Below are positions 4,779-40,569 of a stretch of 41,792 bases of DNA, piece by piece; positions within the stretch are counted from its first letter, which is position 1; each line of letters begins with the position of its first letter. Location of the stretch: NCBI GenBank assembly GCA_035469225.1, contig DATIRX010000218.1:1-41792 (forward strand), given 5' to 3'. This DNA is from Bryobacteraceae bacterium (lineage in GTDB: Bacteria; Acidobacteriota; Terriglobia; Bryobacterales; Bryobacteraceae). The translations under genes and the position numbers were made by a program. Under the pieces are notes generated by a model. The model was not told the origin of the DNA. It was given only the letters and a program-made list of their open reading frames with translations, and did not search any database.

Positions 4779-4862
4779 CTAGTCGTAGTATGTCAGAAGC
4801 AGCGGGCGGAGATTTGCATGGAGCAGAGGGATACGGAATCGCATATTTCTGGATAATTTTCC

Positions 4863-5185: not shown

Positions 5186-5202
<17 letters not shown>
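5008..5202 (+). CDS. Possible small single-TM protein (64 aa)
   Basis: This is the only ORF downstream of the 4863 promoter. It has a hydrophobic N-terminus (SLLSAVGAALVLLALVV) followed by a basic tail. Its 3' end overlaps the convergent kinase gene by 17 nt. Support is weak. Confidence 0.25.
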
Positions 5203-7774
<2,572 letters not shown>

Positions 7775-9132: not shown

Positions 9133-9142
9133 ATTGTAAACG

Positions 9143-26239: not shown

Positions 26240-26283
26240 GCGAGTGAATCCCCCTGAGTTTGTTGGCGTGTGAACCGCTCACC

Positions 26284-26312
26284 ATCGTAGTTTTGCGGGC
26301 GGTGGGTGTCAA
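26284..26312 (-). promoter_or_regulatory. Sigma70-like promoter TTGACA-17-TACGAT for the ThDP enzyme/cytochrome c operon
   Basis: On the minus strand, TTGACA corresponds to plus-strand 26307-26312 and TACGAT to 26284-26289, with an exact 17-nt spacer. An AGGGGGA Shine-Dalgarno sequence lies 9 nt before the ATG at 26239. Confidence 0.45.
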
Positions 26313-26395
26313 GGCAACGCATAACGGATGCTCGGTCTGCGTGGGCGACGACCGAAAGCTTGCGGCTTTTCGAGCCTTCGCTGAAACGGCAAGCT

Positions 26396-27496
26396 CTAGT
26401 TCCCGTTCAACGGAAATCGCTTAGGATAAGCCCATCTAAGGTCGTCAGCGTGCTCTGGGGTCATCCGAGACTTCACGTCTTCCAGCCAGCCGAGGAAAGC
26501 ATCCATGTTCTCAACGCTGAAAACTTTGCATCCAAAGTCCTGTTCAACCCTGACCCGTTGGTCGTTCATGAGTCTTGCCATGGCCTTATCTGTAAAGTAG
26601 CCGTCGCAATATGGAGCGTAGGTAGCGGCATGCTCGATGTCGGAGAAAAACCCGGAGAGCTTGTCTCGTGTCTTCCTTGACGTGGGGTCAGGTTTCGTCC
26701 AACTCGAACGCAGGCTCTGTCTGTAGGCACTGAACAATCGAGCCGATAATTGCACGGTCGGGACTTCTGTAAAGTGTTGTGCCCTAAAAAATCCGCCGAT
26801 TACTGCAGGGTCCATTCCCTCCGCCTTAACTACACGCCACATGTCTTCCACAACCGAGGCCCTCACCGGTGAATCTATCAGGGCAGAAAAGTCCCCCGTC
26901 ATAAGCCGGGCGGTTTTGGTCGTATAGCTATCGATCAAAACCCGCGCAGTATCGTTAATCTCCAGCTCCATGTCGTCTTCAAACGTCCGGGCCTTGTTTG
27001 CCCATTGGGGCAACACCTTCAAGAGTTCATCAAGAGCCTGTTGCTTGTGCATGGATCTGCGGTCTACATCCCTCGCCGCGCTAAAGACGCTAACTGAGTA
27101 ATCGCCATCCCAATCGTGAACGCTGGGACATAACGCGTCACGTTCCTCTTTCTGATACGTCGCCGCTGCGTTTTCCAAGTAGGCATGGAACGCTTTCAAA
27201 ATCTGTATTTCTTCGACGCGCCAATATGGTTCGAAGTGATGGCCCCTGGCTACTCCCTGAATAAACTGCACCAGCGCGTCCCGATACTCACCGTTCAAAT
27301 CAGCCTCGGCTACATGAGTGAAAGAATAGGGAATCGCCAGCAACTGCAGGTCGAGTAATTCCTTCACCTTTGCCATCGGCACCGTCGCCCATTCATTCGC
27401 AGCACCTCCTCTCTGAACAGAAGAAAAGAAATTCTGATCGAGATATAGAATGCTCTTAAGCGTTTGATTCCCGAGCATTTGTTTTGTAACAAGCAT
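26396..27496 (-). CDS. Orphan hypothetical protein (366 aa) in a low-GC patch; split PIN-like motifs
   Basis: Long ORF with no recognisable family. Sampled 60-mers are 50-55% GC, against about 65% for the flanks. The motifs are ILYLDQNFF, SFTHVAE, and FSDIEHAATYAPYCDGYFTDKAM. Confidence 0.65.
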   Translation of the reverse strand: MLVTKQMLGNQTLKSILYLDQNFFSSVQRGGAANEWATVPMAKVKELLDLQLLAIPYSFTHVAEADLNGEYRDALVQFIQGVARGHHFEPYWRVEEIQILKAFHAYLENAAATYQKEERDALCPSVHDWDGDYSVSVFSAARDVDRRSMHKQQALDELLKVLPQWANKARTFEDDMELEINDTARVLIDSYTTKTARLMTGDFSALIDSPVRASVVEDMWRVVKAEGMDPAVIGGFFRAQHFTEVPTVQLSARLFSAYRQSLRSSWTKPDPTSRKTRDKLSGFFSDIEHAATYAPYCDGYFTDKAMARLMNDQRVRVEQDFGCKVFSVENMDAFLGWLEDVKSRMTPEHADDLRWAYPKRFPLNGN

Positions 27497-27689
27497 GAAC
27501 AGAAGACCGTTGGGAAGCGGAAAAATGCGCCTACCATCTATATTTTACGCGTGTCAGTACAGGCCCTGGCCTGAGTGTCGCCGGTATGTCGGAGACACGT
27601 TCGCCTCAACATCCCCAACCTCCCAAGGGGCTTCCTCCCTTCTGGACAACCACTTGCGACTTCGATCACCGCGGTATCCTCTCCTCCTG

Positions 27690-27730
27690 GCCTAATCTTT
27701 AGGCAGCTTTCTTGGGTTCGTTTTGTATTT
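27690..27730 (+). terminator. Attenuator-like hairpin GCCUAA-UCU-UUAGGC followed by a U-rich tract in the thiC leader
   Basis: 6-bp stem at 27690-27704, then AGCUUUCUUGGGUUCGUUUUGUAUUU. A second TTTAGGC copy at 27728-27734 could pair alternatively with 27690-27695. Confidence 0.3.
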
Positions 27731-27781
27731 AGGCTCTTCACCCGCCGCTCCCGGGCGGACCGCGATAGTTACATCTGGTAA

Positions 27782-29161
<1,380 letters not shown>

Positions 29162-29177
29162 TATCATCTTGCTAGCA

Positions 29178-30338
29178 ATGGTTTTAGAGCTGGGAGCCAC
29201 GCAAGCTCAGATCCAGCGGATTCTTCAAAGCAAAGCGTTTCGTACTTCGGAAGTCCACCGTAATCTTCTGAGTTACCTCGCCGAGAAATCGCTTTCCGGC
29301 ACCGCCGACAGCTTGAAAGAATATACCGTCGGGCTGGACGTGTTTTCAAAGCCGTCTTCCTACGATCCGCGCCAGGAATCCACCGTCCGCATGCACGTGG
29401 CGCGACTCCGCCAGAAGCTCAGCGAGTATTACCGCACCGAAGGCGTGGACGATCCGATCATGGTGGATCTGCCCAAGGGCGCGTTCAAGCTGACGTTTGA
29501 GCCTCGCGAGATCCGCGTGGAAGCCGTTCCTGAGCCCGCCGTCGTGCCCGCGCAGCGCTTCTGGAGGCCGAAGGAAATCGCACTGGCAGCCGCACTCCTG
29601 ATAGCCCTGGGCTTGGCCGTCTATTTCGGAACGCGCTTGTGGCAGGTGGAGCGGGCCGACATTCAAGCCAACATCAACTGGACTCCCGAATTGAAGCAGC
29701 TGTGGGAGCCTCTGGTGTCTTCCAATCGACCTTTGATTATTTGCCTGTCTTCGCCGGATCCGGGCATTGGAGAAATGGGAACGGCCACCGGAGGGGTCCT
29801 GCTGGGGCAGTTCCTGGGGATGCTCCAGAAACGCGACGTGCTGGTCACCAGTAGCGACCAGATCGCGGCCCCCGAAGTCGCCATGGGCAACGTGGTCTTC
29901 CTGGGACCGGTGGTGGGGAACCGCCAGATGCAGGCTATGTCGGCGGACTGGCCATTTATGCTGGAGCCCGATGGAATCCGAAACACGCATCCCGCACCGG
30001 GGGAGCCCGGGTTGTTCAAGGACAAACCCCCGAAGGATCCGCAGGATACGGAAGAGAGCTATGCTCTGGTGAGCCGTGTTCCCGGTCTGTATGGCAATGG
30101 CGAGGTCCTGTACTTGTCGGGGAGCCGGATTTCGAGCATCACCGGCGAAGTTCAAGCCTTCACCGACCCTATGTTCGCGAAAACATTGGTCGCGAAGATG
30201 AAGAAGGCGGATGGCAGCCTGCCTCGCTACTACCAGGTGGTTCTCAAAGTGAAATCGATGGACAACATGCCCATCGAGGTGGCTTACGCCGCGCACCGGG
30301 AACTTCCCCGGCCCTCCCAGTCAGCCCCTAAACAGTGA
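29178..30338 (+). CDS. ToxR/CadC-like membrane-anchored regulator: N-terminal OmpR-type winged helix, one TM helix, uncharacterised periplasmic domain
   Basis: Wing motif STVRMHVARLRQKLSEYY...IMVDLPKGAFKLTFEP and TM helix IALAAALLIALGLAVYFG. A TTG at 29169 is an alternative start. Confidence 0.65.
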   Translation: MVLELGATQAQIQRILQSKAFRTSEVHRNLLSYLAEKSLSGTADSLKEYTVGLDVFSKPSSYDPRQESTVRMHVARLRQKLSEYYRTEGVDDPIMVDLPKGAFKLTFEPREIRVEAVPEPAVVPAQRFWRPKEIALAAALLIALGLAVYFGTRLWQVERADIQANINWTPELKQLWEPLVSSNRPLIICLSSPDPGIGEMGTATGGVLLGQFLGMLQKRDVLVTSSDQIAAPEVAMGNVVFLGPVVGNRQMQAMSADWPFMLEPDGIRNTHPAPGEPGLFKDKPPKDPQDTEESYALVSRVPGLYGNGEVLYLSGSRISSITGEVQAFTDPMFAKTLVAKMKKADGSLPRYYQVVLKVKSMDNMPIEVAYAAHRELPRPSQSAPKQ

Positions 30339-30357
30339 TTCTGTAAGCAGTTACAGT

Positions 30358-30379
30358 GTCACTCACCGGTCACTGACCG
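30358..30379. promoter_or_regulatory. Operator-like motif GTCACTCACCGGTCACTGACCG, copy 1
   Basis: 18/22 identical to 31938-31959. Contains the palindrome CGGTCA-C-TGACCG and GTCACT direct repeats 11 nt apart. Ends 77 nt before the ATG at 30457. Confidence 0.4.
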
Positions 30380-30456
30380 CTCTTGACCCCTCCGCTAGTG
30401 TAACCGCCCCTCCATCGTGTTAGTCTCCTCATGGGACTAGGTGCAGCCTTCAAAAA

Positions 30457-30954
30457 ATGATGTCTCTTCTCGAAATCGCCAAGTGGCTCCAGGAAACTCC
30501 AGGCAGTATTTCCATCCGGGAGTCGATTCTGATGTTCCCGGTGCTGGAGGGTTCTCATCTTTTGGGGATCGCTGTCTCGGCCGGAACCATCGCCATCTCG
30601 GATCTCCGCATGATGGGGCTCATCTTCAAGAAGGAGTCGGCCTCCGACGTCTTTCATCAGCTCATCCCGTGGACGAGCGCGGGTTTCGCGATGATGATCA
30701 TCACCGGAATGCTGCTGCTGTGGTCCGAACCCGTCAAGCTCTACAACAGCATCTGGTTCCGCTATAAAGTGCTGTTCCTGATTCTGGCCGGGCTGAACGT
30801 GTTGATCTTCCACTCCTCCAGGGTCTATCGCACCATCCGTGAATGGGAATGGGACGCGAACCCTCCGCGGGCCGCGAAGATCGCCGGCTGGGTGTCGCTG
30901 ATCAGCTGGGGCATCGTGATTATCGCCGGCAGGACCACGGCGTACAACTTCTAA
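30457..30954 (+). CDS. 4-TM membrane protein, type 1 (uncharacterised; H-x8-G-x5-DLR motif)
   Basis: Four hydrophobic helices. Shares WLQxT..IRES.L.FP, the H...DLR motif and LLLW with 34874-35401. Confidence 0.75.
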   Translation: MMSLLEIAKWLQETPGSISIRESILMFPVLEGSHLLGIAVSAGTIAISDLRMMGLIFKKESASDVFHQLIPWTSAGFAMMIITGMLLLWSEPVKLYNSIWFRYKVLFLILAGLNVLIFHSSRVYRTIREWEWDANPPRAAKIAGWVSLISWGIVIIAGRTTAYNF

Positions 30955-30960
30955 AAACCC

Positions 30961-31443
30961 ATGTGGCAATCCTTCAAACCGTTCTTTGAGTGGAGTGACA
31001 AGATTTGGCTGGGCCAGGCGATCTCGTCCACCGTGTGGGCCTTTCCGGTGATCGAAACGATCCATATTCTGGCCCTGACGATTATGTTCGGCGCCATCGT
31101 GATCATCGATTTGCGGATGATGGGCGTCGGCTTGAAGAAGCAATCGGTGGCGTTGCTGTCCAGGAGCCTGGACCCTTACATGACCACCGGGCTGGTAATC
31201 ATGCTGGCCACCGGGTTCATGCTGTTCACCTCGGAAGCCATGAAGTGCTTCGTCAACGATGGGTTCAAGTTCAAGATGGCGGTGCTGTTTCCTGCCGTCA
31301 TTTTCCAGTTCACCCTATTCCGCTGGGTGACGCACAAGACCGAAGACAAGCGCCCGATGCTGCTGGGCTGGGTCGTCGCGCTGCTATCGCTCACGCTATG
31401 GTTCGGCGTCGGCGTCGGCGGCCGGGCCATCGGATTTGTATAA
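30961..31443 (+). CDS. 4-TM membrane protein, type 2 (uncharacterised; H-x8-G-x5-DLR motif)
   Basis: Lies 6 nt after the previous gene. Shares WAFPV.E..HI...DLR..G.G.KK and a C-terminal GFV/AFV with 34408-34860. Confidence 0.75.
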   Translation: MWQSFKPFFEWSDKIWLGQAISSTVWAFPVIETIHILALTIMFGAIVIIDLRMMGVGLKKQSVALLSRSLDPYMTTGLVIMLATGFMLFTSEAMKCFVNDGFKFKMAVLFPAVIFQFTLFRWVTHKTEDKRPMLLGWVVALLSLTLWFGVGVGGRAIGFV

Positions 31444-31479
31444 TCGCAGTCGAGGGTTAAGCGGGGAGGACCGCGCGAA

Positions 31480-31908
31480 GTGTACCGAGGGATGAACGCC
31501 AGGTCGGCCGGCAGCACGGTCATACTCACGCTGGCCCTGTGCTCGGCGCCTTTGCTTGCCCATCACGCCTTTTCAGCGGTGTTCGATCTAGCCAAACAGA
31601 GAGACTTCAAGGGAACCATTTCCAGAGTCGAGTGGTTGAACCCGCACGCGCGTTTCCTCCTGGATGTCCCGCAATCAGGCGGAAAGACCATAAGCTGGGA
31701 GTTCGAGCTGGGCAGTCCCAACGCCCTCATGCAGCATGGCTGGAACAGGTACACGCTGAAGAAAGGTGACGTGGTTACGGTGACGGCTGTTCTGGCCCGG
31801 GACGGATCGAACTATGCGCATGCGCGCGCAGTCACGCTGGCGGGCGGCAGCCGGATTTGCGACTACGACCGGTTCAATGGCCCCGAGTGGTCGTGCCCCG
31901 AGAAGTAA
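31480..31908 (+). CDS. Small exported protein (DUF6152-like), predicted mature N-terminus His-His
   Basis: The GTG at 31480 is preceded by GGGGAGGA; the ATG at 31492 is an alternative start. The signal peptide ends CSAPLLA, followed by HHAFSAVFD...VEWLNPHARFLLDV. Confidence 0.7.
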   Translation: MYRGMNARSAGSTVILTLALCSAPLLAHHAFSAVFDLAKQRDFKGTISRVEWLNPHARFLLDVPQSGGKTISWEFELGSPNALMQHGWNRYTLKKGDVVTVTAVLARDGSNYAHARAVTLAGGSRICDYDRFNGPEWSCPEK

Positions 31909-31936
31909 CCGCAGCGCAACCTACTGAAACCACGAT

Positions 31937-31969
31937 AGTCACGACCCGGTCATTGACCGGCATGTGACT
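31937..31969. promoter_or_regulatory. Nested 33-nt palindrome AGTCAC-N3-CCGGTCA-T-TGACCGG-N3-GTGACT, operator-like motif copy 2
   Basis: 13 of 16 arm positions are complementary, and the inner 7-bp arms are perfect. The motif lies upstream of the TonB receptor ATG at 32014 (44 nt after the palindrome end, 54 nt after the conserved block). Confidence 0.4.
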
Positions 31970-32013
31970 TGTCTCCGGCGAGGATCAGGCCGCTCTCATG
32001 TTAGGCTCCCCGC

Positions 32014-34320
32014 ATGTCTATCTTCCAGGGGTACTTGTGTCTGGTTTTCTCTGCAGGGATCGGTCTGGCCCAGCAGCTTTCCATTTCCGGGACGGTTCGC
32101 GACGCCAGCGGCGTGGTGCCGGACGCATCCGTGACGCTTCGCGCCGGAGGGAATGCCCTTCGGACGACCACCACCGACGGCATGGGCCACTACGCCTTCG
32201 AGGGGTTGCGGGCAAGCTACTACGAGCTTTCGTTCGCGAAGTCCGGATTCGACCCGGTCACGCGAAATCTGGACCTCGGCGTCAATTCGGGCACTGTGGA
32301 TGTGACGCTGGCGGTAGGAGCAGTATCGTCCACCGTCACGGTAACGGACGTGGCCGGAAAAGCGACGGCTTCGCGTCTGGATATTCCGGATGAAGACTTG
32401 CCTGTGCAGGTCAGCTCCATTCCAAAGGAGCTCCTCCAGGAACAGGGCGTCAATGACATGGTCACGGCGTTGCGGAACGCCTCGGGGGTCCAGGCGCAGC
32501 GCTTCTATGGCGTCTACGAGCAGTACACCATCCGTGGCTTCAATGCGGGCGACGTGATGCTGGTGGACGGAATGCGGACGGAGGCCATCTTGAACCGCTA
32601 CAACACGCAACTGAACAATGTGGAGAGCGTGGAAATCCTGAAGGGGCCGAGTTCCGTGCTCTACGGCGGCGAGGCCGTGGTTGGCGCGATTAACGTGATC
32701 CGCAAGAAACCGCAGGGGCAGCGCGCGTACGACCTGTTGTACAAGGGCGGCCGGTTCAACACGCACCAGGCGGGCGGCGGCGCCACCGGACCTCTCTTTG
32801 GCAGTAACTCCTGGCTCTACCGGGCGGACGTGAGCCAGGACTATTCGGACGGCTGGCGGGGCGCGGGGGCGAACCGCTTCAACGCATCGCCGTCCCTAAC
32901 CTGGCTGATGAGCGAGCGATCGCGCGTCACGGTTCACCAGTCGTTCATCCGGGACAACTACAAAGGCGACGGCGGCGTGCCGGTCCGTTGGACCACGGCG
33001 CCGGGTTTCGATCCCAGTCGCCGGTTCAGCACACCGCAGGATTTCGCTCTGATCGAAGACTCGCAGACGCACGTCCTGTTCAATTTCAGCCTGTCCCCCT
33101 CATGGGAATTCCGCGACGGCTTCCTGATGCGGCGTACCAGCGAGGAATACTTCATCACGGAAGGTTCCCTGGGCTTCGATCCGGTAGCCAATGTGATCAC
33201 CCGCGAGGGCCTTCAATTCCACCATACCCGCCGGCCCAAGGTGAACCAGGCCGAACTCGTAGGACGCTTCAACTTCCTGAACATGCATCACACGGTGCTC
33301 ATGGGTTACGACTACCGCGACTTCTACACCAAGACCGGCACCACGGATGGCGGCGGTTTCTTCGAATTCACGCCCATCAGCCTGGCCGATTTCAAGGAAA
33401 CTCAGCCGCCCGTCGATCCGTTCAACATCGTGCGCTACACCTACTCTGCCAACCGGACGAACGCATTCTTTTGGCAGGATCAGATCGACCTCGGGCGCAA
33501 GATCAAGATCAACATCGGGGGCCGCTTCGACGATTTTGATCGCCACACCCATCGCATTTTCCTGACAGCTCCCAGCACGCTTACCAGGGTCCAGGCTGTG
33601 CATCAGAGTGCCTACACGTATCGGGCCGGCATCGTCTACGAACCTGTGACAGGCCATCAAGTATACGCGAACACGTCCAGTTCATTTACTCCGGTGCAGG
33701 ATTTTCTAACCGGCCTCGAGCTGAAGCCGCGCTATGGCCGCGGCTACGAAGCGGGCTATCGATGGCAGGGCTGGCAGGGCCGCATCCAGACCAGCATCGC
33801 GGCGTATCACATTGAACAGAACAATCTCAGCTTCACTACGTCTCCCGGAACGGTGGTTCAGGCCGGCAAGCAGACCTCCAAGGGAATCGACCTGGACATC
33901 AACGCGGATCTCAGCCATGGCACCCGGCTGGTCCTCAACTACGGGTACACCGTTCCGAAGTTCAACCAGTTCCTAGATCCCGATGACGGAGATTTGGCCG
34001 GGAACCTGCCCCGTTTTACGCAGAGGCAGGCGCTGAACGTGTGGCTACACAAGGCCTGGACTTCGGGATTCACCGCAGGCGTTGGCACGCGATACCTGGG
34101 CCCGATGTTCACCAACAATACCAACACTATCCTGTTGGGCGGCTGGACGACGTTCACCGGATCGGCCGGATACCGCAGGGAATCCTGGGAGTGGAACGTG
34201 CATGCGGAGAACCTGCTGAACCGGGAGCGCTACTTCCTCGGTTCGGATTACAGCAACCAGGTGTACCCGGGTGCTCCGATCAACGTTTTCGCCTCCGTGC
34301 GGTTTAGATTTAACCCTTAG
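32014..34320 (+). CDS. TonB-dependent receptor with N-terminal carboxypeptidase-regulatory-like domain
   Basis: Signal peptide, CarboxypepD_reg-like segment ISGTVRDASGVVPDASVTL...GHYAFEGL, plug motifs TIRGF and VESVEILKGPSSVLYGGEAVVGAINV, and a long beta-barrel. Confidence 0.88.
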   Translation: MSIFQGYLCLVFSAGIGLAQQLSISGTVRDASGVVPDASVTLRAGGNALRTTTTDGMGHYAFEGLRASYYELSFAKSGFDPVTRNLDLGVNSGTVDVTLAVGAVSSTVTVTDVAGKATASRLDIPDEDLPVQVSSIPKELLQEQGVNDMVTALRNASGVQAQRFYGVYEQYTIRGFNAGDVMLVDGMRTEAILNRYNTQLNNVESVEILKGPSSVLYGGEAVVGAINVIRKKPQGQRAYDLLYKGGRFNTHQAGGGATGPLFGSNSWLYRADVSQDYSDGWRGAGANRFNASPSLTWLMSERSRVTVHQSFIRDNYKGDGGVPVRWTTAPGFDPSRRFSTPQDFALIEDSQTHVLFNFSLSPSWEFRDGFLMRRTSEEYFITEGSLGFDPVANVITREGLQFHHTRRPKVNQAELVGRFNFLNMHHTVLMGYDYRDFYTKTGTTDGGGFFEFTPISLADFKETQPPVDPFNIVRYTYSANRTNAFFWQDQIDLGRKIKINIGGRFDDFDRHTHRIFLTAPSTLTRVQAVHQSAYTYRAGIVYEPVTGHQVYANTSSSFTPVQDFLTGLELKPRYGRGYEAGYRWQGWQGRIQTSIAAYHIEQNNLSFTTSPGTVVQAGKQTSKGIDLDINADLSHGTRLVLNYGYTVPKFNQFLDPDDGDLAGNLPRFTQRQALNVWLHKAWTSGFTAGVGTRYLGPMFTNNTNTILLGGWTTFTGSAGYRRESWEWNVHAENLLNRERYFLGSDYSNQVYPGAPINVFASVRFRFNP

Positions 34321-34322
34321 CC

Positions 34323-34338
34323 GTCCGCGGATGCGGAC
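34323..34338 (+). terminator. Hairpin GUCCGC-GGAU-GCGGAC 2 nt after the receptor stop codon
   Basis: Perfect 6-bp stem followed by AAAAC with no U-tract. It may only attenuate readthrough into 34408. Confidence 0.3.
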
Positions 34339-34407
34339 AAAACTCCGCCCGCACGTCACGTTTGTTATGATCGGTTCCGGTTTGTTGTCCGAAAGGTTGA
34401 ATCATTC

Positions 34408-34860
34408 ATGGCATTCTTTTTGGCTTACGATGTAGCAAACAATCCGCTGAATACAAATGAATGGGCGTTCCCGGTGTGTGAAGTGCTGCATATCATCGGG
34501 TTCGCCATTGCGATCGGAACCATCACCATGGTGGATCTGCGGCTTCTGGGGATCGGGATGAAGAAGGAAACGCCCGCGGACCTGGTAAGAGACACGGCTC
34601 CATGGACGCTGGGCGGCCTGGCACTGGTGCTGATCTCGGGTCCGCTGATTTTCTCCTCCGATCCAAATCTGTATCTGCACAACCTGTCGTTCCGGTTCAA
34701 GATTACAGCACTGGTTTTGGCGATCATCTTTAATTACACGATTCACCGCTGGGTAGCGCTGAAACACACCTCGGGCGGCGTGGCAGCTCTCACGGGCTTA
34801 GTCTCACTCCTCTTGTGGGTCAGCGTGGTGTTCGGCGGAATCTTCATAGCGTTCGTCTAA
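34408..34860 (+). CDS. 4-TM membrane protein, type 2 paralogue
   Basis: See 30961-31443. Motifs are WAFPVCEVLHIIGFAIAIGTITMVDLRLLGIGMKK and a C-terminal AFV. Confidence 0.75.
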   Translation: MAFFLAYDVANNPLNTNEWAFPVCEVLHIIGFAIAIGTITMVDLRLLGIGMKKETPADLVRDTAPWTLGGLALVLISGPLIFSSDPNLYLHNLSFRFKITALVLAIIFNYTIHRWVALKHTSGGVAALTGLVSLLLWVSVVFGGIFIAFV

Positions 34861-34873
34861 AGGGAGAAATCCG

Positions 34874-35401
34874 ATGCCTCCAGAATTCATCTTATGGCTT
34901 CAAAATACGTCGATCGCTACGGCCATTCGCGAGTCGGCACTGGTGTTTCCGATCATCCTGTCCCTGCATTTAACAGGGATGGGGCTGTTTGGCGGAATGA
35001 TCCTGATGACCGATCTGCGCATCCTGGGACTGGCGATGACCAAGCGCCCGGTTTCAGAAGTAGTGAACGGCCTGCGGCCGTGGAAGCACCTGGGGCTTAC
35101 CCTGACGGCCACCTGCGGAATCCTGCTGTTGTGGTGCAAGGTGGCGATCTATTACCCCAATCCATTTCTTCGGATCAAGCTGGCGCTGTTCGTGCTGATC
35201 CTGATTCACGCGCTGGTATTCCGGAGCGTTTATCGCAACATTACGGATTTGGATGGCAGTCCGGTGATTCCCGGGCGGGCGAAGGCGGCTGCGGTGCTCT
35301 CGATGGTCCTGTGGATCGGTGTAGTAACCTCGGGCCGTTGGATCGGCTATTGGGAGCCCAAGGGCGAGCCGGCGAACGCGGCCCGGGTGGTCAACCAGTA
35401 G
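34874..35401 (+). CDS. 4-TM membrane protein, type 1 paralogue
   Basis: See 30457-30954. Motif is WLQNTSIATAIRESALVFPIILSLHLTGMGLFGGMILMTDLR. An AGGGAG Shine-Dalgarno sequence lies upstream. Confidence 0.75.
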   Translation: MPPEFILWLQNTSIATAIRESALVFPIILSLHLTGMGLFGGMILMTDLRILGLAMTKRPVSEVVNGLRPWKHLGLTLTATCGILLLWCKVAIYYPNPFLRIKLALFVLILIHALVFRSVYRNITDLDGSPVIPGRAKAAAVLSMVLWIGVVTSGRWIGYWEPKGEPANAARVVNQ

Positions 35402-35409
35402 CGGCGGGT

Positions 35410-36240
35410 TCAACTCGTTACAAGCTCTTCGGGGTCTTCCTCGACGCGCGGCTGCACGTTGCGGCGGACCAGGATCGCCAACACCACGGTTGTGGCCAGC
35501 GTAATGGCGCCGCCGGTGATGTGCGAGGCGACCGTTATCACCACAGGCAGGGCGGTCTCCTCCGCCATGGATCTCATGATGAGCGCGGTCATGCCCAGGA
35601 ATACCTGGCCGAAAGCCACGCCTAACAGGGCCTTAGCAGCAGCCTGGAGGGCGCGGTGGGATTTGAATTGCTGCAGCACGAAGATGCATTGCATCAGAAT
35701 CACCAAAGCCACAAACATCGCGCCTAATACGTGCGGCATTAAAGTCATGGCCTTCTGCCGGAAGGCCGCCCCGAGCGCGATCTGCATCAGCACCAGTACC
35801 GGACTGACGATGGCCAGCGACCGGTTGGACGGCCAGCCATAGTCGTGGACCAACTCGGGGCCGCGGGACCAGGCCGGCGATGTGACGGTAGCGATGGCTA
35901 CTAAAGCGGCGAAGAAAAGCTGCGCCAGGCAGGCGTGCGCGATTCGCGCTGTTTGCGGGAGCATCGCTTGCACGGCCGACATGCCCGCGACTCCCTCCAG
36001 CGCCGCGATCGTCAAGGTAAGAAACCCCAGGAGGCGCGCCTCCCGGCGAGGATCGGACACCACCAGCCAGATCGTCAGGCCGAGGGTCAACAGGCCCATC
36101 GCGATCGCCGCGGCGCGGTGTGCGGACATCGCCGAGGGATCCACTGCCGTCCCCGAGCCGGCGATGGCTCCGTCGATAATCAGCAGGAGTGCGCCGACGG
36201 CCAGCAGGATGGCAAAGCGGTGCAGCCAGACTTTCTTCAT
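35410..36240 (-). CDS. COX15/CtaA-like (haem A synthase family) membrane protein
   Basis: The internal ATG at 36240 gives MKKVWLHRFAILLAV. There are about 7-8 TM helices with His residues in or near TM segments (HRF, HRAAA, AHACL, PHVLG, ASHITGG). The family call rests on overall pattern only. Confidence 0.6.
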   Translation of the reverse strand: MKKVWLHRFAILLAVGALLLIIDGAIAGSGTAVDPSAMSAHRAAAIAMGLLTLGLTIWLVVSDPRREARLLGFLTLTIAALEGVAGMSAVQAMLPQTARIAHACLAQLFFAALVAIATVTSPAWSRGPELVHDYGWPSNRSLAIVSPVLVLMQIALGAAFRQKAMTLMPHVLGAMFVALVILMQCIFVLQQFKSHRALQAAAKALLGVAFGQVFLGMTALIMRSMAEETALPVVITVASHITGGAITLATTVVLAILVRRNVQPRVEEDPEELVTS

Positions 36241-36252
36241 GGAGCTATCTCC

Positions 36253-36280
36253 ATCATAGGACGGATGATTGACAGGTCTA
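36253..36280 (-). promoter_or_regulatory. Possible promoter TAGACC-16-TATGAT for the CtaA-like gene
   Basis: On the minus strand, TATGAT corresponds to plus-strand 36253-36258 and TAGACC to 36275-36280. It lies back-to-back with the plus-strand promoter. Confidence 0.3.
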
Positions 36281-36297
36281 GGCGCATCTAGTAACAT
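36269..36297 (+). promoter_or_regulatory. Sigma70-like promoter TTGACA-17-TAACAT for the large TonB receptor gene
   Basis: Perfect -35 at 36269-36274, a 17-nt spacer, and a -10 at 36292-36297. A GAAGGGG Shine-Dalgarno sequence precedes the ATG at 36335. Confidence 0.5.
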
Positions 36298-36334
36298 CGG
36301 CGCTAGATTAGCTACTCGCTTTAGAAGGGGAATT

Positions 36335-39300
36335 ATGCGTTTCAGATCCAGGTTGTATCTCGCCGTTTTGGCATTGGCGCTGGGAGCCAGTCTTTGGGGA
36401 CAGGCCACTTCGCAGATTCAAGGAGTGGTGTTGGATCCCGCGGGCGCCGCCGTTCCAGCCGCAGAGATCAAAGCCACGCAGACCGATACGGGCATCGTCC
36501 GGACTACCACCAGCGGCAACGACGGTACCTACGCGCTGGCCAATCTGCCGATCGGCCCCTATCGTGTGGAAGTCACCAAGCCGGGATTCTCCACCTACGT
36601 GCAGACGGGAATCGTGCTTCAGGTGGGGTCGAATCCGACCCTGAATGTGTCTCTCAAAGTGGGCGCGGTGAGCGAGAGCATCCAGGTGGAGGCGAATACC
36701 ACGCAAGTGGAGACGCAGGCCACCAGCATCGGCGGGGTGATCGAGAACAAGCGTATTCTCGAACTGCCGCTCAACGGACGGAACGCGGTGGAGCTTATCG
36801 CCCTTGCCGGCGCAACGATTCCCGGAGGGAAAAACGGCACCGCGGGCTTCCCGGGCGGACTGAATTTCTCGGTGGCGGGCGGCCAGCTCTCGGGCATCGG
36901 CTACTTTCTGGACGGAACCGCGTACAACAATCTATTCGACGCGGTGAATCTTCCGTTTCCCTTCCCGGACGCGTTGCAGGAATTCAAGGTGGAGACCAGC
37001 ACGCTTACGGCGCAGAACGGAACCCACTCGGCCGCGGCTGTCAGCGCAGTGGTGAAATCGGGCACGAATCAGTATCACGGCGACGCGTTTGAGTTTCTGC
37101 GGAATGCCGAGATGAATGCGCGCAACTTCAAAGCTCCGCGCCGCGACACCCTGAAGCGCAACCAGTACGGCGGCACGTTCGGCGGTCCGATCATGCAGAA
37201 CAAGCTGTTCTTCTTTACCGGGTACCAGGGAACCAAAACGCGGTCTGACCCCGCCGATCTAACCGGATTCGTTCCCACTGCGCAGATGCTGGCGGGCGAC
37301 TTCACCGGATGCTCCACCTTCCCTGCCACGCTGCGAGATCCCAACGGCGGAACGTTCTCGAATCGTCAGATTCCGACTGGCCGGTTCAGTCCGCAGGCCC
37401 TGGCGATCGTCAAACTGCTGCCCACTACGACGGATCCCTGCGGGAGAACTCCCTACGGTCCCGTCACCAAGATCAACGAGTACCAGGTGCTGGGCCGCAT
37501 GGATTACCAGATTAGCGCCCGCCAGCAGCTCTTCGGCCGGTATATGGCGACGACATTCCTGCAGCCGGCGTCCTACGGGTTCTCGAAGAACCTTCTGGAC
37601 ACCACTCAGGGCGGGCTGGATAACCTGGCGCAGACATTCACCCTCGGGCACACGTTCCTGATTTCGCCGACCACCGTAAACCAGTTCCGGACGTCGGCCA
37701 ATCGCGTTGCGGTCCACCGCTTCAACGACGACTACTTTTCGGGCTGCGACCTGGGCGTGAAAATCTACTGCTATCTGCCGCATCAAACGGTAGTGGGCGT
37801 GACGGGAGGCCCGACCATCGGAATCGGAACAGCGGTGGAGGCGGCCTTCGTACCCACCAATTACACGATGTCCGACGACGTCAATCTGATTCGCGGATCG
37901 CATCAGTTTGCGTTCGGATATTCGGGTTTCAAGTACCAGCACAGCCAGAAGGCCAACGTTTTTTCGGTAGCCTCCTTTGCGTTTAGCGGTCTGGTTTCAG
38001 GCCTAGGAATGGCAGACTTCCTGCTGGGGCAGAGCAGCGGCTTGACACAGGCGACTCCCAATACGGTGTTCACGACCAAATGGGGTCACAGCCTGTACGG
38101 ACAGGACACGTGGAAAGTAAACCGACGGCTGACGCTCAACCTGGGCATACGGTGGGAGCCGTTCCTTCCACAGAGCCTCAATAACGGGGCCGTTTTCAAT
38201 TTCAGCCGGGACCGCTTTAATGCGGGCGTGCACAGCACCGTATTCAAGAATGCTCCCGCCGGACTGCTGTATGCCGGCGATGCGGGATTCGAAGGAAATA
38301 CCGGCGTGAACAAGCGGTACAACCAGTTTGCGCCGCGCATCGGAGCGGCCTTCGATCCGAAAGGCGACGGCAGAACGTCGATTCGGACTTCGTTCGGAGT
38401 GGCCTACGATTTCCCGAATATCCAGATCATGTCTACGCCGGCCACGGCTCCGCCCTTCGCCAGCACGGTGAACGTGCCAGGCCCGCTCAGTTTCGCGGAT
38501 CCGTACGGGAACTTCCCGGGCGGGAATCCGTTCCCCGGCAACTTTACGGTCGGACCCAATGTGCCTTTTGTAGCTTTCGGTTCATATGTCGCGCAGCAGC
38601 CGGACGCCCGCGGCACCACCGTGCTCACGTGGAACTTCGCGGTGCAGCATCAGTTTGGAAAAGACTGGCTGGTTTCGGCGACGTATCTGGGCACAGAGAC
38701 GTCCCATCTGTGGGTGAGTTTCCAGCTCAACCCCGCGGTGCCTACGATAGCCGGGGCGAACACGGGGAACACCAACACCCGGCGGTTAGCGTACCTAAGG
38801 AATCCATCCGCCACCGAGGGAGGCCTGCTGGGATTCGTCGATCAGTTCGAATCCGGCGGGACGGCCAGTTACAACGGAATGATTCTGTCATTGCAGAAAC
38901 GCCTGAGCCAGGGCATCAGCTTCAATGCGAACTACACGTGGTCTCACTGCATCGGCGACGTAACCATCGGCTCCCTGGTCGGCGGCGCGGGCGGCACCTA
39001 CTCGGATGCCAATGACCGGCGTCGCGACCGCGGGAATTGCCAGACGGGCACGCTGGATGGAACTCAGGCCCTGGATCGGCGGCACATCGCGAACTTCAAT
39101 GCGGTGCTCGAATCTCCCAAGTTCAAGGGTGCCATCCTGCGGACGCTGGCCAGCGACTGGAGGCTGTCGCCCAGCTACCGGATCTTATCGGGCGCGTTCC
39201 AGACGGTTACCACCGGCATCGACTTCGCGCTGACCGGAGCAGCGGCGCAGCGTCCCAACCAGGCGCTCGCGAATCCTCTGTGTGAGCACCCCAACGCGGC

Positions 39301-39592
39301 TTGCTGGATCAACCCGGCAGCGTTCACGCAGCCGGCCAATGGCACGCTGGGCAATCTGGGGCGGTCCAACGTCCCCGGGCCCGGTTTCTGGACCGTCGAC
39401 ATGGCGCTCTCCCGCGGCTTCCGCGTGCGCGAGAACATCAATGTCGAGCTGCGCGGCGAGGCGTTCAACCTGACCAACAGCTACCGTGCGGGGCCCGTTA
39501 CAACGGCTCGTAACAACACGGCGCAATTTGGGCAGATCCTGACGGCGCAGGATCCGCGGATCATGCAGGTGGCGTTGAAACTGGTTTTTTAA
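36335..39592 (+). CDS. Large TonB-dependent receptor / CarboxypepD_reg domain outer-membrane protein (Oar-like, 1085 aa)
   Basis: Signal peptide MRFRSRLYLAVLALALGASLWG. Motifs IQGVVLDPAGAAVPAAEIKA...GTYALANLPIGPYRVEV and ELPLNGRN, and a C-terminal beta-barrel ending ALKLVF. Confidence 0.88.
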   Translation: MRFRSRLYLAVLALALGASLWGQATSQIQGVVLDPAGAAVPAAEIKATQTDTGIVRTTTSGNDGTYALANLPIGPYRVEVTKPGFSTYVQTGIVLQVGSNPTLNVSLKVGAVSESIQVEANTTQVETQATSIGGVIENKRILELPLNGRNAVELIALAGATIPGGKNGTAGFPGGLNFSVAGGQLSGIGYFLDGTAYNNLFDAVNLPFPFPDALQEFKVETSTLTAQNGTHSAAAVSAVVKSGTNQYHGDAFEFLRNAEMNARNFKAPRRDTLKRNQYGGTFGGPIMQNKLFFFTGYQGTKTRSDPADLTGFVPTAQMLAGDFTGCSTFPATLRDPNGGTFSNRQIPTGRFSPQALAIVKLLPTTTDPCGRTPYGPVTKINEYQVLGRMDYQISARQQLFGRYMATTFLQPASYGFSKNLLDTTQGGLDNLAQTFTLGHTFLISPTTVNQFRTSANRVAVHRFNDDYFSGCDLGVKIYCYLPHQTVVGVTGGPTIGIGTAVEAAFVPTNYTMSDDVNLIRGSHQFAFGYSGFKYQHSQKANVFSVASFAFSGLVSGLGMADFLLGQSSGLTQATPNTVFTTKWGHSLYGQDTWKVNRRLTLNLGIRWEPFLPQSLNNGAVFNFSRDRFNAGVHSTVFKNAPAGLLYAGDAGFEGNTGVNKRYNQFAPRIGAAFDPKGDGRTSIRTSFGVAYDFPNIQIMSTPATAPPFASTVNVPGPLSFADPYGNFPGGNPFPGNFTVGPNVPFVAFGSYVAQQPDARGTTVLTWNFAVQHQFGKDWLVSATYLGTETSHLWVSFQLNPAVPTIAGANTGNTNTRRLAYLRNPSATEGGLLGFVDQFESGGTASYNGMILSLQKRLSQGISFNANYTWSHCIGDVTIGSLVGGAGGTYSDANDRRRDRGNCQTGTLDGTQALDRRHIANFNAVLESPKFKGAILRTLASDWRLSPSYRILSGAFQTVTTGIDFALTGAAAQRPNQALANPLCEHPNAACWINPAAFTQPANGTLGNLGRSNVPGPGFWTVDMALSRGFRVRENINVELRGEAFNLTNSYRAGPVTTARNNTAQFGQILTAQDPRIMQVALKLVF

Positions 39593-39596
39593 GGCT

Positions 39597-39619
39597 GACA
39601 GGCGACAAGATCGCCTGTC
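39597..39619. terminator. Perfect 9-bp hairpin GACAGGCGA-CAAGA-UCGCCUGUC between convergent genes
   Basis: Lies 4 nt after the receptor stop codon and 4 nt before the MBL gene stop codon. A T6 run sits on its plus-strand 5' side. Likely a bidirectional terminator. Confidence 0.55.
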
Positions 39620-39623
39620 CTAC

Positions 39624-40499
39624 CTACTCGTAAAATTCAGGAGCCTTCTTCAGCTTGGCGTTGTCGGCAGTGCCGTGCTGGATCCACAGGACCGCACCTG
39701 ACTTCTTGATGAAGGCTTCGAGATCGGCGCGGGACTTGCGCGTCTGATCCGCGTTGAAGTCGAACCCAGGAACGATACCCAGGCTGCGCTCTTCGGGATA
39801 GTGATACAGGTCGCCAGAGAGCACCACCGGACCCGTTTTCGCGAATTTTAGAAATAGCGACTGATGGCCGGGCGTGTGACCGGGCGTGAACTTGATGATG
39901 ACAGTTCCGTCGCCGAAGACATCATGATCCTCGCTGTGAAGCAGGGTCGTTTTGCTCTTTTCGAGTTTGCTGAAATAGGCAAGATCCGGAGTGGTCGGCC
40001 CTTTGGCTTTCGCGTCCTGCTTCGCGAACATGGCGGCGCGCTCGACATCCTGGACGATCCAGTTTGAGCCGGCAAAGGCGTTGGCGTTGGCCACGTGATC
40101 GCCATGATAGTGCGAGAGCGCGAGGTAGGTGATATCAGCGGGCGTGTAGCCGAGCGCGGCGAGCTGCGGCAACAAGGGCCGGGTGATGGCGAACGCGCCA
40201 GCCTTCGTCGGATTTCCCTTGAAATCGGCGTCCGGGATTTCACCGGTGTCCCATATCATCGTGCCGCGCGGATGCACCACGAGGTAGCAAGGCGTGACCA
40301 TTCTGGAATCGGCCAGCTGGCCCTGCTTGAACCCGAACTGTGTTTCTCCAACGCCGGTGATATCGCCGCAATCGAGAATGTATAGGCGCAGCGACTTGGG
40401 GGCTGCCGGCTTCTTCGTCTGCCCAGTTGCCGCGAAGGGCAGGATCGCGGACAGGACCAGCGCCGCGGCTGGTATTGCGATGCGAAAGATTTTCTTCAT
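39624..40499 (-). CDS. Exported MBL-fold metallo-hydrolase (N-acyl homoserine lactonase-like)
   Basis: Signal peptide MKKIFRIAIPAAALVLSAILPFAA and zinc motif LSHYHGDHVANA (HxHxDH), with downstream TPGHTPGH and HG motifs. Confidence 0.85.
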   Translation of the reverse strand: MKKIFRIAIPAAALVLSAILPFAATGQTKKPAAPKSLRLYILDCGDITGVGETQFGFKQGQLADSRMVTPCYLVVHPRGTMIWDTGEIPDADFKGNPTKAGAFAITRPLLPQLAALGYTPADITYLALSHYHGDHVANANAFAGSNWIVQDVERAAMFAKQDAKAKGPTTPDLAYFSKLEKSKTTLLHSEDHDVFGDGTVIIKFTPGHTPGHQSLFLKFAKTGPVVLSGDLYHYPEERSLGIVPGFDFNADQTRKSRADLEAFIKKSGAVLWIQHGTADNAKLKKAPEFYE

Positions 40500-40569
40500 G
40501 AAAGCTCCTTAGGCCGTTCCCGATTCTACCGCTGGCGAAGGGACGCCGCTACTGCGTATCATCGTGTGC

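Follow-up and report, generated by a model that had tools for sequence, protein, structure and literature searches.

We analysed 41,792 nucleotides of a Bryobacteraceae genome (contig DATIRX010000218.1 of assembly GCA_035469225.1; hereafter, the window) and found a module in which a membrane-anchored regulator (reg389), two ordered pairs of small membrane proteins of the family DUF6644 (T1-T2 and T2b-T1b) and an exported protein of the family DUF6152 form a single conserved, co-regulated unit. The bacterium belongs to the Acidobacteriota, which are among the most abundant bacteria in soil, and to our knowledge metal acquisition in this phylum is little characterised. The conserved core consists of reg389, the T1-T2 pair, DUF6152 and the T2b-T1b pair; a TonB-dependent receptor encoded between the two pairs lies outside it. 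Judging from the sequences and by analogy with known systems, the module would face the periplasm and would acquire and hand over a redox-active transition metal, an assignment that we hold with a probability of roughly 0.45. Gene order, fusions, a common operator and ligand-type residues would then tie two uncharacterised Pfam families to metal-chelate traffic. The literature that we searched holds no paper mentioning DUF6644 or DUF6152, in agreement with the initial annotation of this cluster, which knew of no characterised function for its small proteins.

That annotation had described six same-strand genes, from T1 to T1b, and all six are present at the same coordinates in the list of open reading frames (ORFs) of the window. 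It set the limits of the unit too narrowly, missing reg389 (29169-30338) and the operator to the left of T1. The elements considered here are the following.

29169..30338, forward strand: reg389, membrane-anchored one-component regulator (ORF list; weak Trans_reg_C match; 18 homologues)
30357..30388, forward strand: operator 1, upstream of T1 (TGTCAC-N5-GGTCACTGACC-N5-TTGACC; direct repeat plus palindrome GGTCAnTGACC)
30418..30426, forward strand: TGTTAGTCT box, candidate extended -10 (conserved columns in aligned orthologous spacers)
30457..30954, forward strand: T1, DUF6644 protein of long-loop type with four transmembrane (TM) segments (Pfam PF20349, 30.3 bits)
30961..31443, forward strand: T2, DUF6644 protein of short-loop type with four TM segments (Pfam E 4.3e-16; AlphaFold2 pLDDT 91.9)
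31480..31908, forward strand: DUF6152, predicted exported OB-fold protein (Pfam E 3.5e-26; AlphaFold2 pLDDT 88.2; start probably at 31492)
31937..31968, forward strand: operator 2, upstream of the receptor gene (AGTCAC-N5-GGTCATTGACC-N5-GTGAC)
31999..32007, forward strand: TGTTAGGCT box before the receptor gene, putative promoter element (sequence match to the box upstream of T1)
32014..34320, forward strand: TonB-dependent receptor of siderophore/metallophore type (Pfam domains; TIGR01783, 213 bits; PDB relatives)
34408..34860, forward strand: T2b, DUF6644 protein of short-loop type (Pfam E 4.9e-10; DUF2214 1.8e-5)
34874..35401, forward strand: T1b, DUF6644 protein of long-loop type (Pfam E 4.1e-12; pair order)
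35410..36240, reverse strand: COX15/CtaA-like polytopic membrane protein (Pfam COX15-CtaA, 44.5 bits against a cut-off of 29.9)

A conserved, co-regulated unit with a variable slot

Custom hidden Markov models (HMMs) were mapped onto 79 genome loci centred on DUF6152 and onto the contigs reached through exact-protein look-ups. The related loci come nearly all from metagenome-assembled genomes (MAGs) labelled Bryobacterales or Terriglobia, and the orthologous ones have a common order: ThiC, a reg389 of 385-390 aa, T1, T2, DUF6152, a slot of variable content, T2b, T1b, a divergent COX15/CtaA-like gene and a large receptor. The reg389 gene directly precedes the DUF6152/DUF6644 genes in 11 of the 14 DUF6152-centred loci that have a DUF6644 pair. 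Of the five-gene association proposed initially, the T1-T2 pair, DUF6152 and the T2b-T1b pair proved to be conserved, but the receptor is replaced in other loci by a PepSY_TM gene or by nothing. The idea that the six genes stand side by side by chance is ruled out by this conservation together with the operator evidence.

The slot holds a siderophore-type receptor in the window and in locus L089, and a PepSY_TM gene in L003-L006, L008 and L001/L016 (Pfam PF03929, E 1.6e-14 for L003); it is empty in L092-L094, and the contig of L095 ends just beyond the first pair. Since its content varies among close relatives, the receptor is an exchangeable accessory and not a core component. The window itself has no PepSY_TM gene, and the PepSY_TM protein of the sister loci has no PDB sequence match to FoxB. 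Right after the receptor stop codon there is a GC-rich hairpin without a T-run (GTCCGC-GGAT-GCGGAC, 34321-34345), and the sequence immediately past the stop is variable in the alignment. The leader upstream of T2b (GTTTGTTATGATCGGTTCCGG...GTCCGAAAGGTTGAAT) is conserved in both the empty-slot variants and those with a receptor, and it may delimit the inserted segment.

Co-regulation is indicated by the spacer between reg389 and T1, in which the block (T/G)GTCAC-N5-GGTCACTGACC-N4-6-TGACC is invariant in six orthologous loci with variable surroundings. Variants of this block were found between reg389 and the next gene in all 17 spacers read, with the repeat-plus-palindrome layout in 16; the exception, L053, carries the tandem variant GGTCACTGACC-GC-GTCACTGACC. 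Exactly two GGTCAnTGACC palindromes exist in the 41.8 kb of the window (0.04 expected), one at 30368 before T1 and the other at 31948 before the receptor, and the same operator cassette precedes the receptor in L089. Downstream of operator 1, the TGTTAGTCT box looks like an extended -10 (TGnTAnnnT) for which no -35 could be recognised, and a TGTTAGGCT box is found upstream of both the receptor and the PepSY_TM genes; both boxes are putative promoter elements. Because 6 nt separate the end of the TGTTAGGCT box from the receptor ATG, the receptor mRNA could lack a leader or carry a very short one. Upstream of the receptor, the sequence can be aligned with that preceding PepSY_TM in L003, L004, L005 and L001, the repeats and the TGTTAGGCT box included, which suggests that one regulated promoter cassette serves either cargo gene. 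The link to metal-chelate traffic that had been proposed for the cluster is strengthened by the fact that the receptor has the module's own operator. A nine-codon mini-ORF (ATGGGACTAGGTGCAGCCTTCAAAAAATGA, 30431-30460) begins 5 nt after the TGTTAGTCT box, and its stop overlaps the start of T1 (ATGATG); it is probably fortuitous, as it is not conserved in L003-L008.

The candidate activator, reg389, has an N-terminal winged-helix-like region of the OmpR/ToxR/CadC kind, a single membrane span around residues 135-155 and, after it, some 220 aa of periplasmic domain, the conserved N-terminal block and the TM segment being apparent across the 18 homologues. With this layout it resembles the ToxR/CadC-type regulators, in which one TM segment joins an N-terminal winged helix that binds DNA to a sensor in the periplasm, and its putative site, direct repeats ahead of a promoter without a -35, recalls theirs; unlike them, reg389 matches Pfam Trans_reg_C only weakly (E 0.029), and its periplasmic domain has no family match. 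Considering its position and its co-occurrence with the operator, reg389 would bind the GTCAC/GGTCAnTGACC repeats as an OmpR/ToxR-type activator. A BLAST hint (E 0.009-0.024) that the periplasmic domain was homologous to the X430/X-core family described below was dropped, as the X-core HMM had no match in reg389 even at E 10.

Paired DUF6644 proteins and the exported DUF6152 protein

The four small membrane proteins all exceed the gathering cut-off (27 bits) of Pfam DUF6644 (PF20349), with 30.3 bits for T1, 59.9 for T2, 40.2 for T2b and 47.0 for T1b (E 5.6e-7 to 4.3e-16); T2b matches DUF2214 as well (1.8e-5). DUF6152 exceeds its cut-off too, so that the guesses of DUF6644-like and DUF6152-like families made in the initial annotation were right. 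Pairwise identity among the four DUF6644 proteins is 30-35%, and all have H-x8-G-x5-DLR at the same spacing, with H34, G43 and D49-L50-R51 invariant (numbering of the four-protein alignment). Given that the four reach the gathering score, this common motif reflects paralogy and not chance. The full motif, first noticed in this cluster, is a feature of the four window proteins and not of the whole family: when 107 diverse members are compared, His35, Gly85 and Lys105 (T2 numbering) are the sole invariant residues, and DLR is found in the majority. The invariant His lies about eight residues into the first TM helix (TM1) and the invariant Lys at the start of the third (TM3). AlphaFold2 predicts for T2 two short N-terminal helices followed by four long helices, which we take as TM (pLDDT 91.9). 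A Foldseek search of the PDB with this model gave nothing better than E 1.8 and no haem-protein match, and a PDB sequence search with the DUF6644 profile gave nothing usable. DUF6644 is a large family that comprises 6,797 clusters at 50% identity (E <= 1e-3); cluster look-ups yielded hardly any taxonomy for its distant members.

DUF6644 genes come in pairs of fixed order, T1 followed by T2 or T2b followed by T1b, in all the Bryobacterales/Terriglobia-labelled loci retrieved and in the metagenome contigs L085/L086, the exceptions being L006, in which no T1 ORF was detected, and L091, cut by the contig end. Within the pairs of the window the stop-to-start gap is 6-13 nt, and in a second DUF6644 lineage the stop codon of one gene overlaps the start of the next or is 0-3 nt away from it. 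Two-domain DUF6644 fusions also recur in many assemblies: the P0241 cluster numbers 61 members, spread over many contigs, and P0243 was found on several (8 and 19 in two look-ups). The ordered pairs, the tight spacing and the natural fusions support the view that DUF6644 proteins would be obligate heterodimers with a total of eight TM helices, and the hetero-oligomer suggested at first for T1 and T2 is thereby reinforced.

Fusions to other domains bear on orientation. Exported domains are fused to the N-terminus of DUF6644, either DUF6152 (P0321) or CarboxypepD_reg (P0339), and cytochrome c'-like domains with CxxCH motifs to the C-terminus, in the clusters of P0245 (19 members, one of them from a Bryobacteraceae MAG) and P0387 (11 members). 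The latter domains score 20-25 bits with Pfam Cytochrom_C_2, just short of its cut-off of 26.5 (P0245, 25.1). Since exported domains precede DUF6644 and CxxCH domains follow it, both of its ends would be periplasmic, a topology that would put His35 into the outer leaflet and Lys105 where TM3 begins on the periplasmic side. Several long-loop relatives of T1 (P0263, P0320, P0337 and P0352) have a conserved C-terminal periplasmic tail, NWFDCDxQPQPxxxNWxxxC, with two Cys residues that could form a disulfide or a metal site; this tail is absent from the DUF6644 proteins of the window.

Distant relationships were sought among the same 107 members. Sub-threshold Pfam matches were to DUF2214 (41 members, best 1.2e-7), CopD (10, best 1.7e-4), HemJ/UPF0093 (7, best 1.1e-3), SirB (5), DUF2269 (3) and PpoB2 (2), and their recurrence lends support to the CopD/HemJ resemblance that had been suspected from the TM1 histidine. 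The window proteins themselves do not match CopD (PF05425) at E <= 0.1, nor HemJ/UPF0093 (PF03653), and the literature on SirB2 offered no mechanistic lead for DUF6644. The family thus resembles the CopD/HemJ/DUF2214 group in architecture and fusion pattern, as far as sequences tell, and we do not place it in CopD or HemJ proper.

The protein encoded between T2 and the slot matches DUF6152 (PF19649) with 91.6 bits against a cut-off of 27 (E 3.5e-26) over profile positions 4-94 of 98. The annotated ORF has 142 aa and the homologues mostly 138, so its start is probably the ATG at 31492. Among 127 unique DUF6152 paralogues of Bryobacterales, A-H-H directly follows the signal-peptide core in 98%, a third His is present in an NPH motif in about 100%, and D36, W52, D62, W73 and E76 are each found in at least 93%. 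In the second lineage His-His is kept in 43 of 46 DUF6152 sequences (the others being one HHSN variant and two truncated ORFs), the third His as ANH in 45 and the Glu in 42. The mature protein is accordingly predicted to begin with His-His (A|HHAF), and its sequence is compatible with a His-brace copper site of the kind known from CopC, YcnI and LPMOs, in which the amine and the imidazole of the N-terminal His act together with a second His. AlphaFold2 modelled the mature protein as a five-strand barrel with one helix (pLDDT 88.2), and Foldseek related the model to OB folds such as SSB, PriB and the N-domain of LysRS (E about 4e-3, TM-score about 0.5-0.57). DUF6152 is therefore predicted to be an exported OB domain with three conserved His and Asp/Glu residues. 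A PDB sequence search with DUF6152 gave nothing usable; in hhalign comparisons, that with CusF was not significant (E 0.18) and that with YobA, the E. coli CopC homologue, showed signal-peptide similarity only. The family is greatly expanded: at least 589 stretches matched in the reference genomes encode a relative, and Bryobacterales genomes hold hundreds of copies, with several per MAG.

The functional tie between the two families finds support in loci with adjacent DUF6152 and DUF6644 genes. Besides the DUF6152-centred loci, we sampled the association from the DUF6644 side by a metagenome scan with P0281, from a lineage about 35% identical to T1, counting loci of at least 5 kb. In this second lineage, 35 of the 37 loci have a DUF6152 gene immediately before the DUF6644 pair, and the other two are cut at the contig end. 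The L085/L086 contigs carry DUF6152 followed by three DUF6644 pairs (L085), with a cytochrome c'-like gene (signal peptide, CANCH) between pairs, and near the module there are a Czc-type efflux operon, a TlpA-like redoxin and a small Cys/His-rich protein. Between that efflux operon and DUF6152, L085 encodes a 101-aa protein (4498-4803, reverse strand) with an N-terminal hydrophobic segment and a CFCCCHH motif, matching DUF2946 only at E 0.078; the intergenic region that it shares with DUF6152 contains GGTCAnTGACC.

DUF6152 and DUF6644 are frequent but non-exclusive partners. Among the 79 DUF6152-centred loci of Bryobacterales, a DUF6644 pair is present in 14 and a gene of an exported periplasmic family that we call X430 (about 430 aa) or X-core (about 250-330 aa) in 44; one locus has both and 22 have neither. 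The X family is the most frequent neighbour of DUF6152, often in the order DUF6152-DUF6152-X; it has no Pfam, NCBIfam or PDB match and does not occur in the window. X430 lies upstream of DUF6152 and a DUF6644 pair in about 44 second-lineage loci, and this operon (X430, DUF6152, pair) is often convergent with a pair-cytochrome c' fusion, which in L098 is followed by a second X430. DUF6644 ORFs on the minus strand and of the same size as those of L133 and L182 also occur in L159 and L169. Examples of the X430/X-core genes and of the cytochrome c'-like units are listed here.

L098, 11354-12652, forward strand: X430/X-core
L098, 14277-15563, reverse strand: X430/X-core
L145, 2641-4041: X430/X-core
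L021, 10802-11650: X430/X-core, short homologue
L059, 10400-11131: X430/X-core, short homologue
L087, 9114-10097: X430/X-core, short homologue
P0245 / L098, 10001-11299: cytochrome c'-like unit
P0387: cytochrome c'-like unit
L085, 6712-7269: cytochrome c'-like unit
L133, 5068-6336, reverse strand: cytochrome c'-like unit
L182, 8338-9630, reverse strand: cytochrome c'-like unit

Proposed metal hand-off and competing explanations

The receptor has an N-terminal CarboxypepD_reg domain, a Plug and a TonB barrel (Pfam). It scores 213 bits with the siderophore-receptor model TIGR01783, just below the NCBIfam cut-off of 223.5, and 62 bits with the haem-receptor model TIGR01785. Its best PDB relatives are PiuA (5fok), FetA (3qlb), the copper-chelate importer CrtA (9rvq, in third place) and FhuA. 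CrtA is a TonB-dependent importer of copper chelates with the ligand-site residues Y130, W265, E337, Q356, H358 and R395, H358 being essential (PMC12914433); in the phmmer alignment of the receptor to 9rvq, in which three of these six positions were examined, H358 is conserved as H404.

In the mechanism that we favour, the receptor would bring a metal chelate across the outer membrane, and the metal would then be reduced or released in the periplasm at the surface of the inner membrane. PepSY_TM would carry out this step in the sister loci, and the cytochrome c' partners, in those relatives that have them, or the DUF6644 units themselves could act as the reductant instead. DUF6152 would take up the ion at its His-brace-like N-terminal site and dock on the two-His site of the DUF6644 heterodimer, much as YobA (CopC) does on the pair of periplasm-side His of YebZ (CopD). 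From there the metal might pass into the membrane or the cytoplasm, or onto membrane or periplasmic metalloproteins such as haem-copper oxidases, and the ToxR-like reg389 would activate both promoters through the GTCAC/GGTCAnTGACC repeats.

The complete uptake route from receptor to inner membrane that was first imagined for this cluster is not borne out, since periplasmic reduction and hand-off fits the data at least as well as import. As had been stated for it, the cluster encodes no ABC transporter, ExbBD/TonB or known permease, and neither does any large ORF scanned elsewhere in the window; delivery within the periplasm would account for the lack of a permease. This lack also matches the CrtA/CrpH copper systems, because the published operons, in which a TonB-dependent transporter (TBDT) and PepSY_TM supply copper to haem-copper oxidases, list no inner-membrane importer among their genes (PMC12914433, PMC13038864). 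As for the cargo, copper is slightly favoured over iron, on account of the CopD-like ties, the N-terminal His, the CtaA-like, redoxin and Czc-type neighbours, and the similarity to CrtA with its aligned essential His. Iron comes close behind: ferric siderophores are the ligands of the receptor's two top structural relatives and of the family whose threshold it nearly reaches, and the classical function of PepSY_TM points the same way, its published members being haem-dependent periplasmic reductases of ferric siderophores, with CrpH as a putative copper reductase (PMC13038864).

The closest parallel is with CopC and CopD (YobA and YebZ in E. coli, fused as YcnJ in B. subtilis). Copper import by YebZ depends on His135 and His154, which lie close to the periplasmic side; the CopD family includes four-helix 'truncated' proteins with a single His (about 35%), fusions with CopC (about 9%) and proteins with a cytochrome c domain (about 4%) (PMC11923076). 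As in that system, the exported protein would begin with His when mature (YobA ...WA|HAHL, DUF6152 ...LA|HHAF, the latter predicted), and a mature N-terminal His beside a CopD-like partner also recalls YcnI. Similarly, the polytopic partner is built from four-helix bundles with a His near the periplasmic face (essential in YebZ, placed there in DUF6644 by the predicted topology) and has single-His four-helix forms; its periplasmic partner can be fused N-terminally (DUF6152-DUF6644, P0321) and cytochrome c C-terminally (P0245, P0387). To this can be added the weak recurrent CopD/DUF2214 matches and the best hhalign path between DUF6644 and YebZ, itself non-significant, which places H35 on His154 and K105 on Lys230 with the same H-x8-G spacing. 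The differences are that the membrane unit is split here into two four-TM genes and duplicated as two pair types, that DUF6152 has a predicted OB fold and no significant similarity to YobA, so that the arrangement is analogous and not the same, that no CopD sequence comparison is significant, and that the module has its own ToxR-like regulator, operator and slot for a TonB receptor or PepSY_TM.

With the CrtA/CrpH operons the module shares a TBDT and/or PepSY_TM under one metal-related control region, the lack of a listed inner-membrane importer, a tie to respiratory oxidase biogenesis genes (here the CtaA-like neighbour) and the resemblance of the receptor to CrtA, including the essential His358 aligned with His404. 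Unlike in those operons, the receptor and PepSY_TM are alternatives in one slot and not partners, the other CrtA ligand residues examined are not conserved, there is no upstream cruR/DUF2946 ORF, and DUF6644 and DUF6152 are not among the listed operon genes. The systems that release iron from ferric siderophores by reduction, FoxA/FoxB and FpvA with FpvGHJK and FpvC, likewise combine a siderophore-type receptor, a haem-dependent inner-membrane reductase (PepSY_TM, here in the sister loci), small accessory membrane proteins and a periplasmic protein to take the released ion; in contrast to them, we found no ABC or Feo-type importer and recognised no Fur box, and the small membrane proteins and the periplasmic protein come from unrelated families. 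CusF, a small exported OB-fold protein with conserved His and Trp, is comparable to DUF6152 in its proposed hand-over of metal to a membrane complex, but it has no sequence similarity to it, uses His, two Met and Trp and serves efflux, whereas DUF6152 has three His plus carboxylates and an N-terminal His-His. What sets the module apart from all these systems is the split and duplicated four-TM unit, the OB-fold protein with an N-terminal His, the ToxR-like regulator with a dedicated operator and the exchangeable cargo slot.

Several observations weigh against metal hand-off, and against copper in particular. At CrtA Q356 and Y130 the receptor has F402 and Ala, respectively, so that one of the three ligand residues examined is conserved and the receptor departs from the copper-chelate site at the other two; its two top structural relatives import ferric siderophores. 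The comparison of DUF6644 with YebZ is not significant in hhalign (E 0.26 with the single sequence, E 0.36 with a 16-sequence YebZ alignment), and the proposed homology to CopD therefore depends on weak recurrent matches. The conserved Met or Cys usual for Cu(I) handling is found in neither DUF6644 nor DUF6152, and the three His of DUF6152 would cluster on the fold as judged from strand topology only. Fused DUF6644 pairs stand alone in other genomes, accompanied by neither DUF6152 nor a receptor. DUF6152 is not dedicated to DUF6644, since it has X-core neighbours in 44 of the 79 loci and DUF6644 pairs in 14; the partnership assumed for the two is thus frequent, but the one with X-core is more so. 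No box for a metal-responsive regulator (Fur, CueR or CopR) was identified, and the cytochrome c' partners are equally compatible with a pure electron-transfer role.

Such a role is the strongest competitor, although we consider it less likely than metal hand-off. Each DUF6644 heterodimer would ligate one haem b between its two outer-leaflet His, as HemJ reportedly does, with the Lys on a propionate, and would link the quinone pool to DUF6152, as a mononuclear metal centre, or to cytochrome c', which would serve a periplasmic enzyme or substrate (the receptor-imported chelate in this window, the X protein in most other loci). HemJ/PgdH2 (UPF0093) is a membrane b-type haemoprotein that forms a stable dimer (PMC13564367); it is a small four-TM protein whose TM1 His is followed by a Gly-rich helix face, and seven of the 107 DUF6644 members match it below threshold. 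It differs in that the enzyme is a homodimer, acts in haem synthesis and is not known from operons that encode exported metal-binding proteins, whereas DUF6644 forms hetero-pairs. Cytochrome c'-like domains are fused to DUF6644 (P0245, with 19 members, and P0387, with 11), or the corresponding proteins are encoded between or beside pairs (L085/L086, L098, L133 and L182), and the arrangement of X430, DUF6152 and a pair beside a pair-cytochrome c' fusion and X430 looks as if DUF6152 and cytochrome c' were alternative partners. Electron transfer would also suit the PepSY_TM and CtaA-like neighbours, both of haem-binding membrane protein families, the occurrence of fused pairs without DUF6152, and the invariant residues of DUF6644, which are only His and Lys and include none of the acidic, Met or Cys residues of the transport type. 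However, one haem near one face cannot move electrons across the membrane and no quinone site is evident; Foldseek gave no haem-protein match; three His and a carboxylate with an N-terminal His are typical of metal binding or catalysis and not of a classical electron carrier; and the receptor and PepSY_TM linked by the operator point to metal chelates as cargo. Because CopD proteins too have cytochrome c fusions, these do not separate the two models.

It is somewhat less probable still that we are dealing with new envelope machinery and not with a variant of CopCD. DUF6644 pairs would then be an unrecognised minimal class of membrane redox or metal relay (2 x 4 TM) that is common in Acidobacteriota, and DUF6152, with its N-terminal His-His 'brace', a new kind of OB-fold metalloprotein; together with X430/X-core and cytochrome c' they would make up a modular periplasmic system in which a ToxR-like regulator and an operator of its own control a swappable cargo gene, for either a TonB receptor or PepSY_TM. 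The metal-relay and electron-transfer models have most of their parts in common, and both could be partly true.

A role in metal defence or buffering seems improbable. DUF6152 would in this case sequester excess periplasmic metal, and DUF6644 and the regulator would belong to envelope stress or detoxification, as implied by the original 'copper resistance' annotation of CopCD. The L085 module is divergent from a Czc/Cus-type resistance-nodulation-division efflux operon (OEP, CzcB-type fusion protein) and a Cys/His-rich protein, with an operator between them, and an expansion such as that of DUF6152 (at least 589 matching stretches) is common for buffering proteins. But the operator drives an outer-membrane importer or a PepSY_TM reductase, which is sensible for uptake and not for defence, and among the ORFs scanned there is no efflux pump, multicopper oxidase or P-type ATPase in or near the module of the window. 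The tetrapyrrole cargo considered in the initial annotation, with the receptor importing haem or a tetrapyrrole and DUF6644 and the CtaA-like protein binding or processing it, is very improbable in spite of the distant HemJ ties and the COX15/CtaA-like neighbour, since the receptor scores far higher with the siderophore model (213 bits) than with the haem model (62 bits), no tetrapyrrole function is reported for the PepSY_TM of the sister slot, the small OB fold predicted for DUF6152 offers three His in a site of metal type but shows no evident pocket for haem, and the CtaA-like gene has no operator.

If metal hand-off is correct, an OB-fold protein with an N-terminal His would join the known periplasmic metallochaperones, and there would be genetic evidence that four-helix CopD/HemJ-like proteins can act as hetero-pairs with eight TM helices. 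The natural swap of cargo (receptor, PepSY_TM or nothing) behind one operator would make the function testable, and the module bears on the onward route of copper or iron set free in the periplasm where no gene for an inner-membrane importer is nearby.

Neighbouring genes

The CtaA-like gene is a frequent neighbour of the module, and its membership is uncertain. Its translation probably begins at the ATG at 36240, for a product of 276 aa, and five His are invariant among 12 homologues; it had no PDB sequence match. In L014, L050 and L080 the gene is on the same strand, directly after T2b-T1b. No operator was found in its promoter region, that is, the intergenic region between the CtaA-like and large receptor genes, even allowing one mismatch, and hence these two genes are not shown to belong to the regulon.

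On the other side of the module, thiC (27794-29161; ThiC_Rad_SAM, E 4.6e-189) adjoins reg389 in loci down to about 53% DUF6152 identity (L024, L077), which may be plain synteny. At gathering thresholds, Rfam gave no RNA family and no riboswitch in 26000-41792, and no thiamine pyrophosphate riboswitch upstream of thiC (region 27497-29161).

Further away, a 176-aa ORF (40564-41094, forward strand) matches only positions 2-118 of the 418-position profile of cytochrome bd subunit I (E 3.6e-51), so this gene appears to be interrupted by a frameshift, as a pseudogene or through a sequencing error. About 8 kb upstream of the module (19593-22021, reverse strand), there are genes for a pyrroloquinoline quinone (PQQ)-dependent dehydrogenase (20333-22021) and a cytochrome c (19593-20528). 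PQQ dehydrogenases are also found within 10 kb of DUF6644 genes in L003, L098 and L102, a proximity that may be a coincidence because Acidobacteriota carry many such genes. Finally, the window encodes two Ser/Thr protein kinases with tetratricopeptide repeats (5186-7774, reverse strand, and 12303-14564, forward strand), the first of which adjoins a molybdopterin oxidoreductase of the sulfite-oxidase type (7780-9342).

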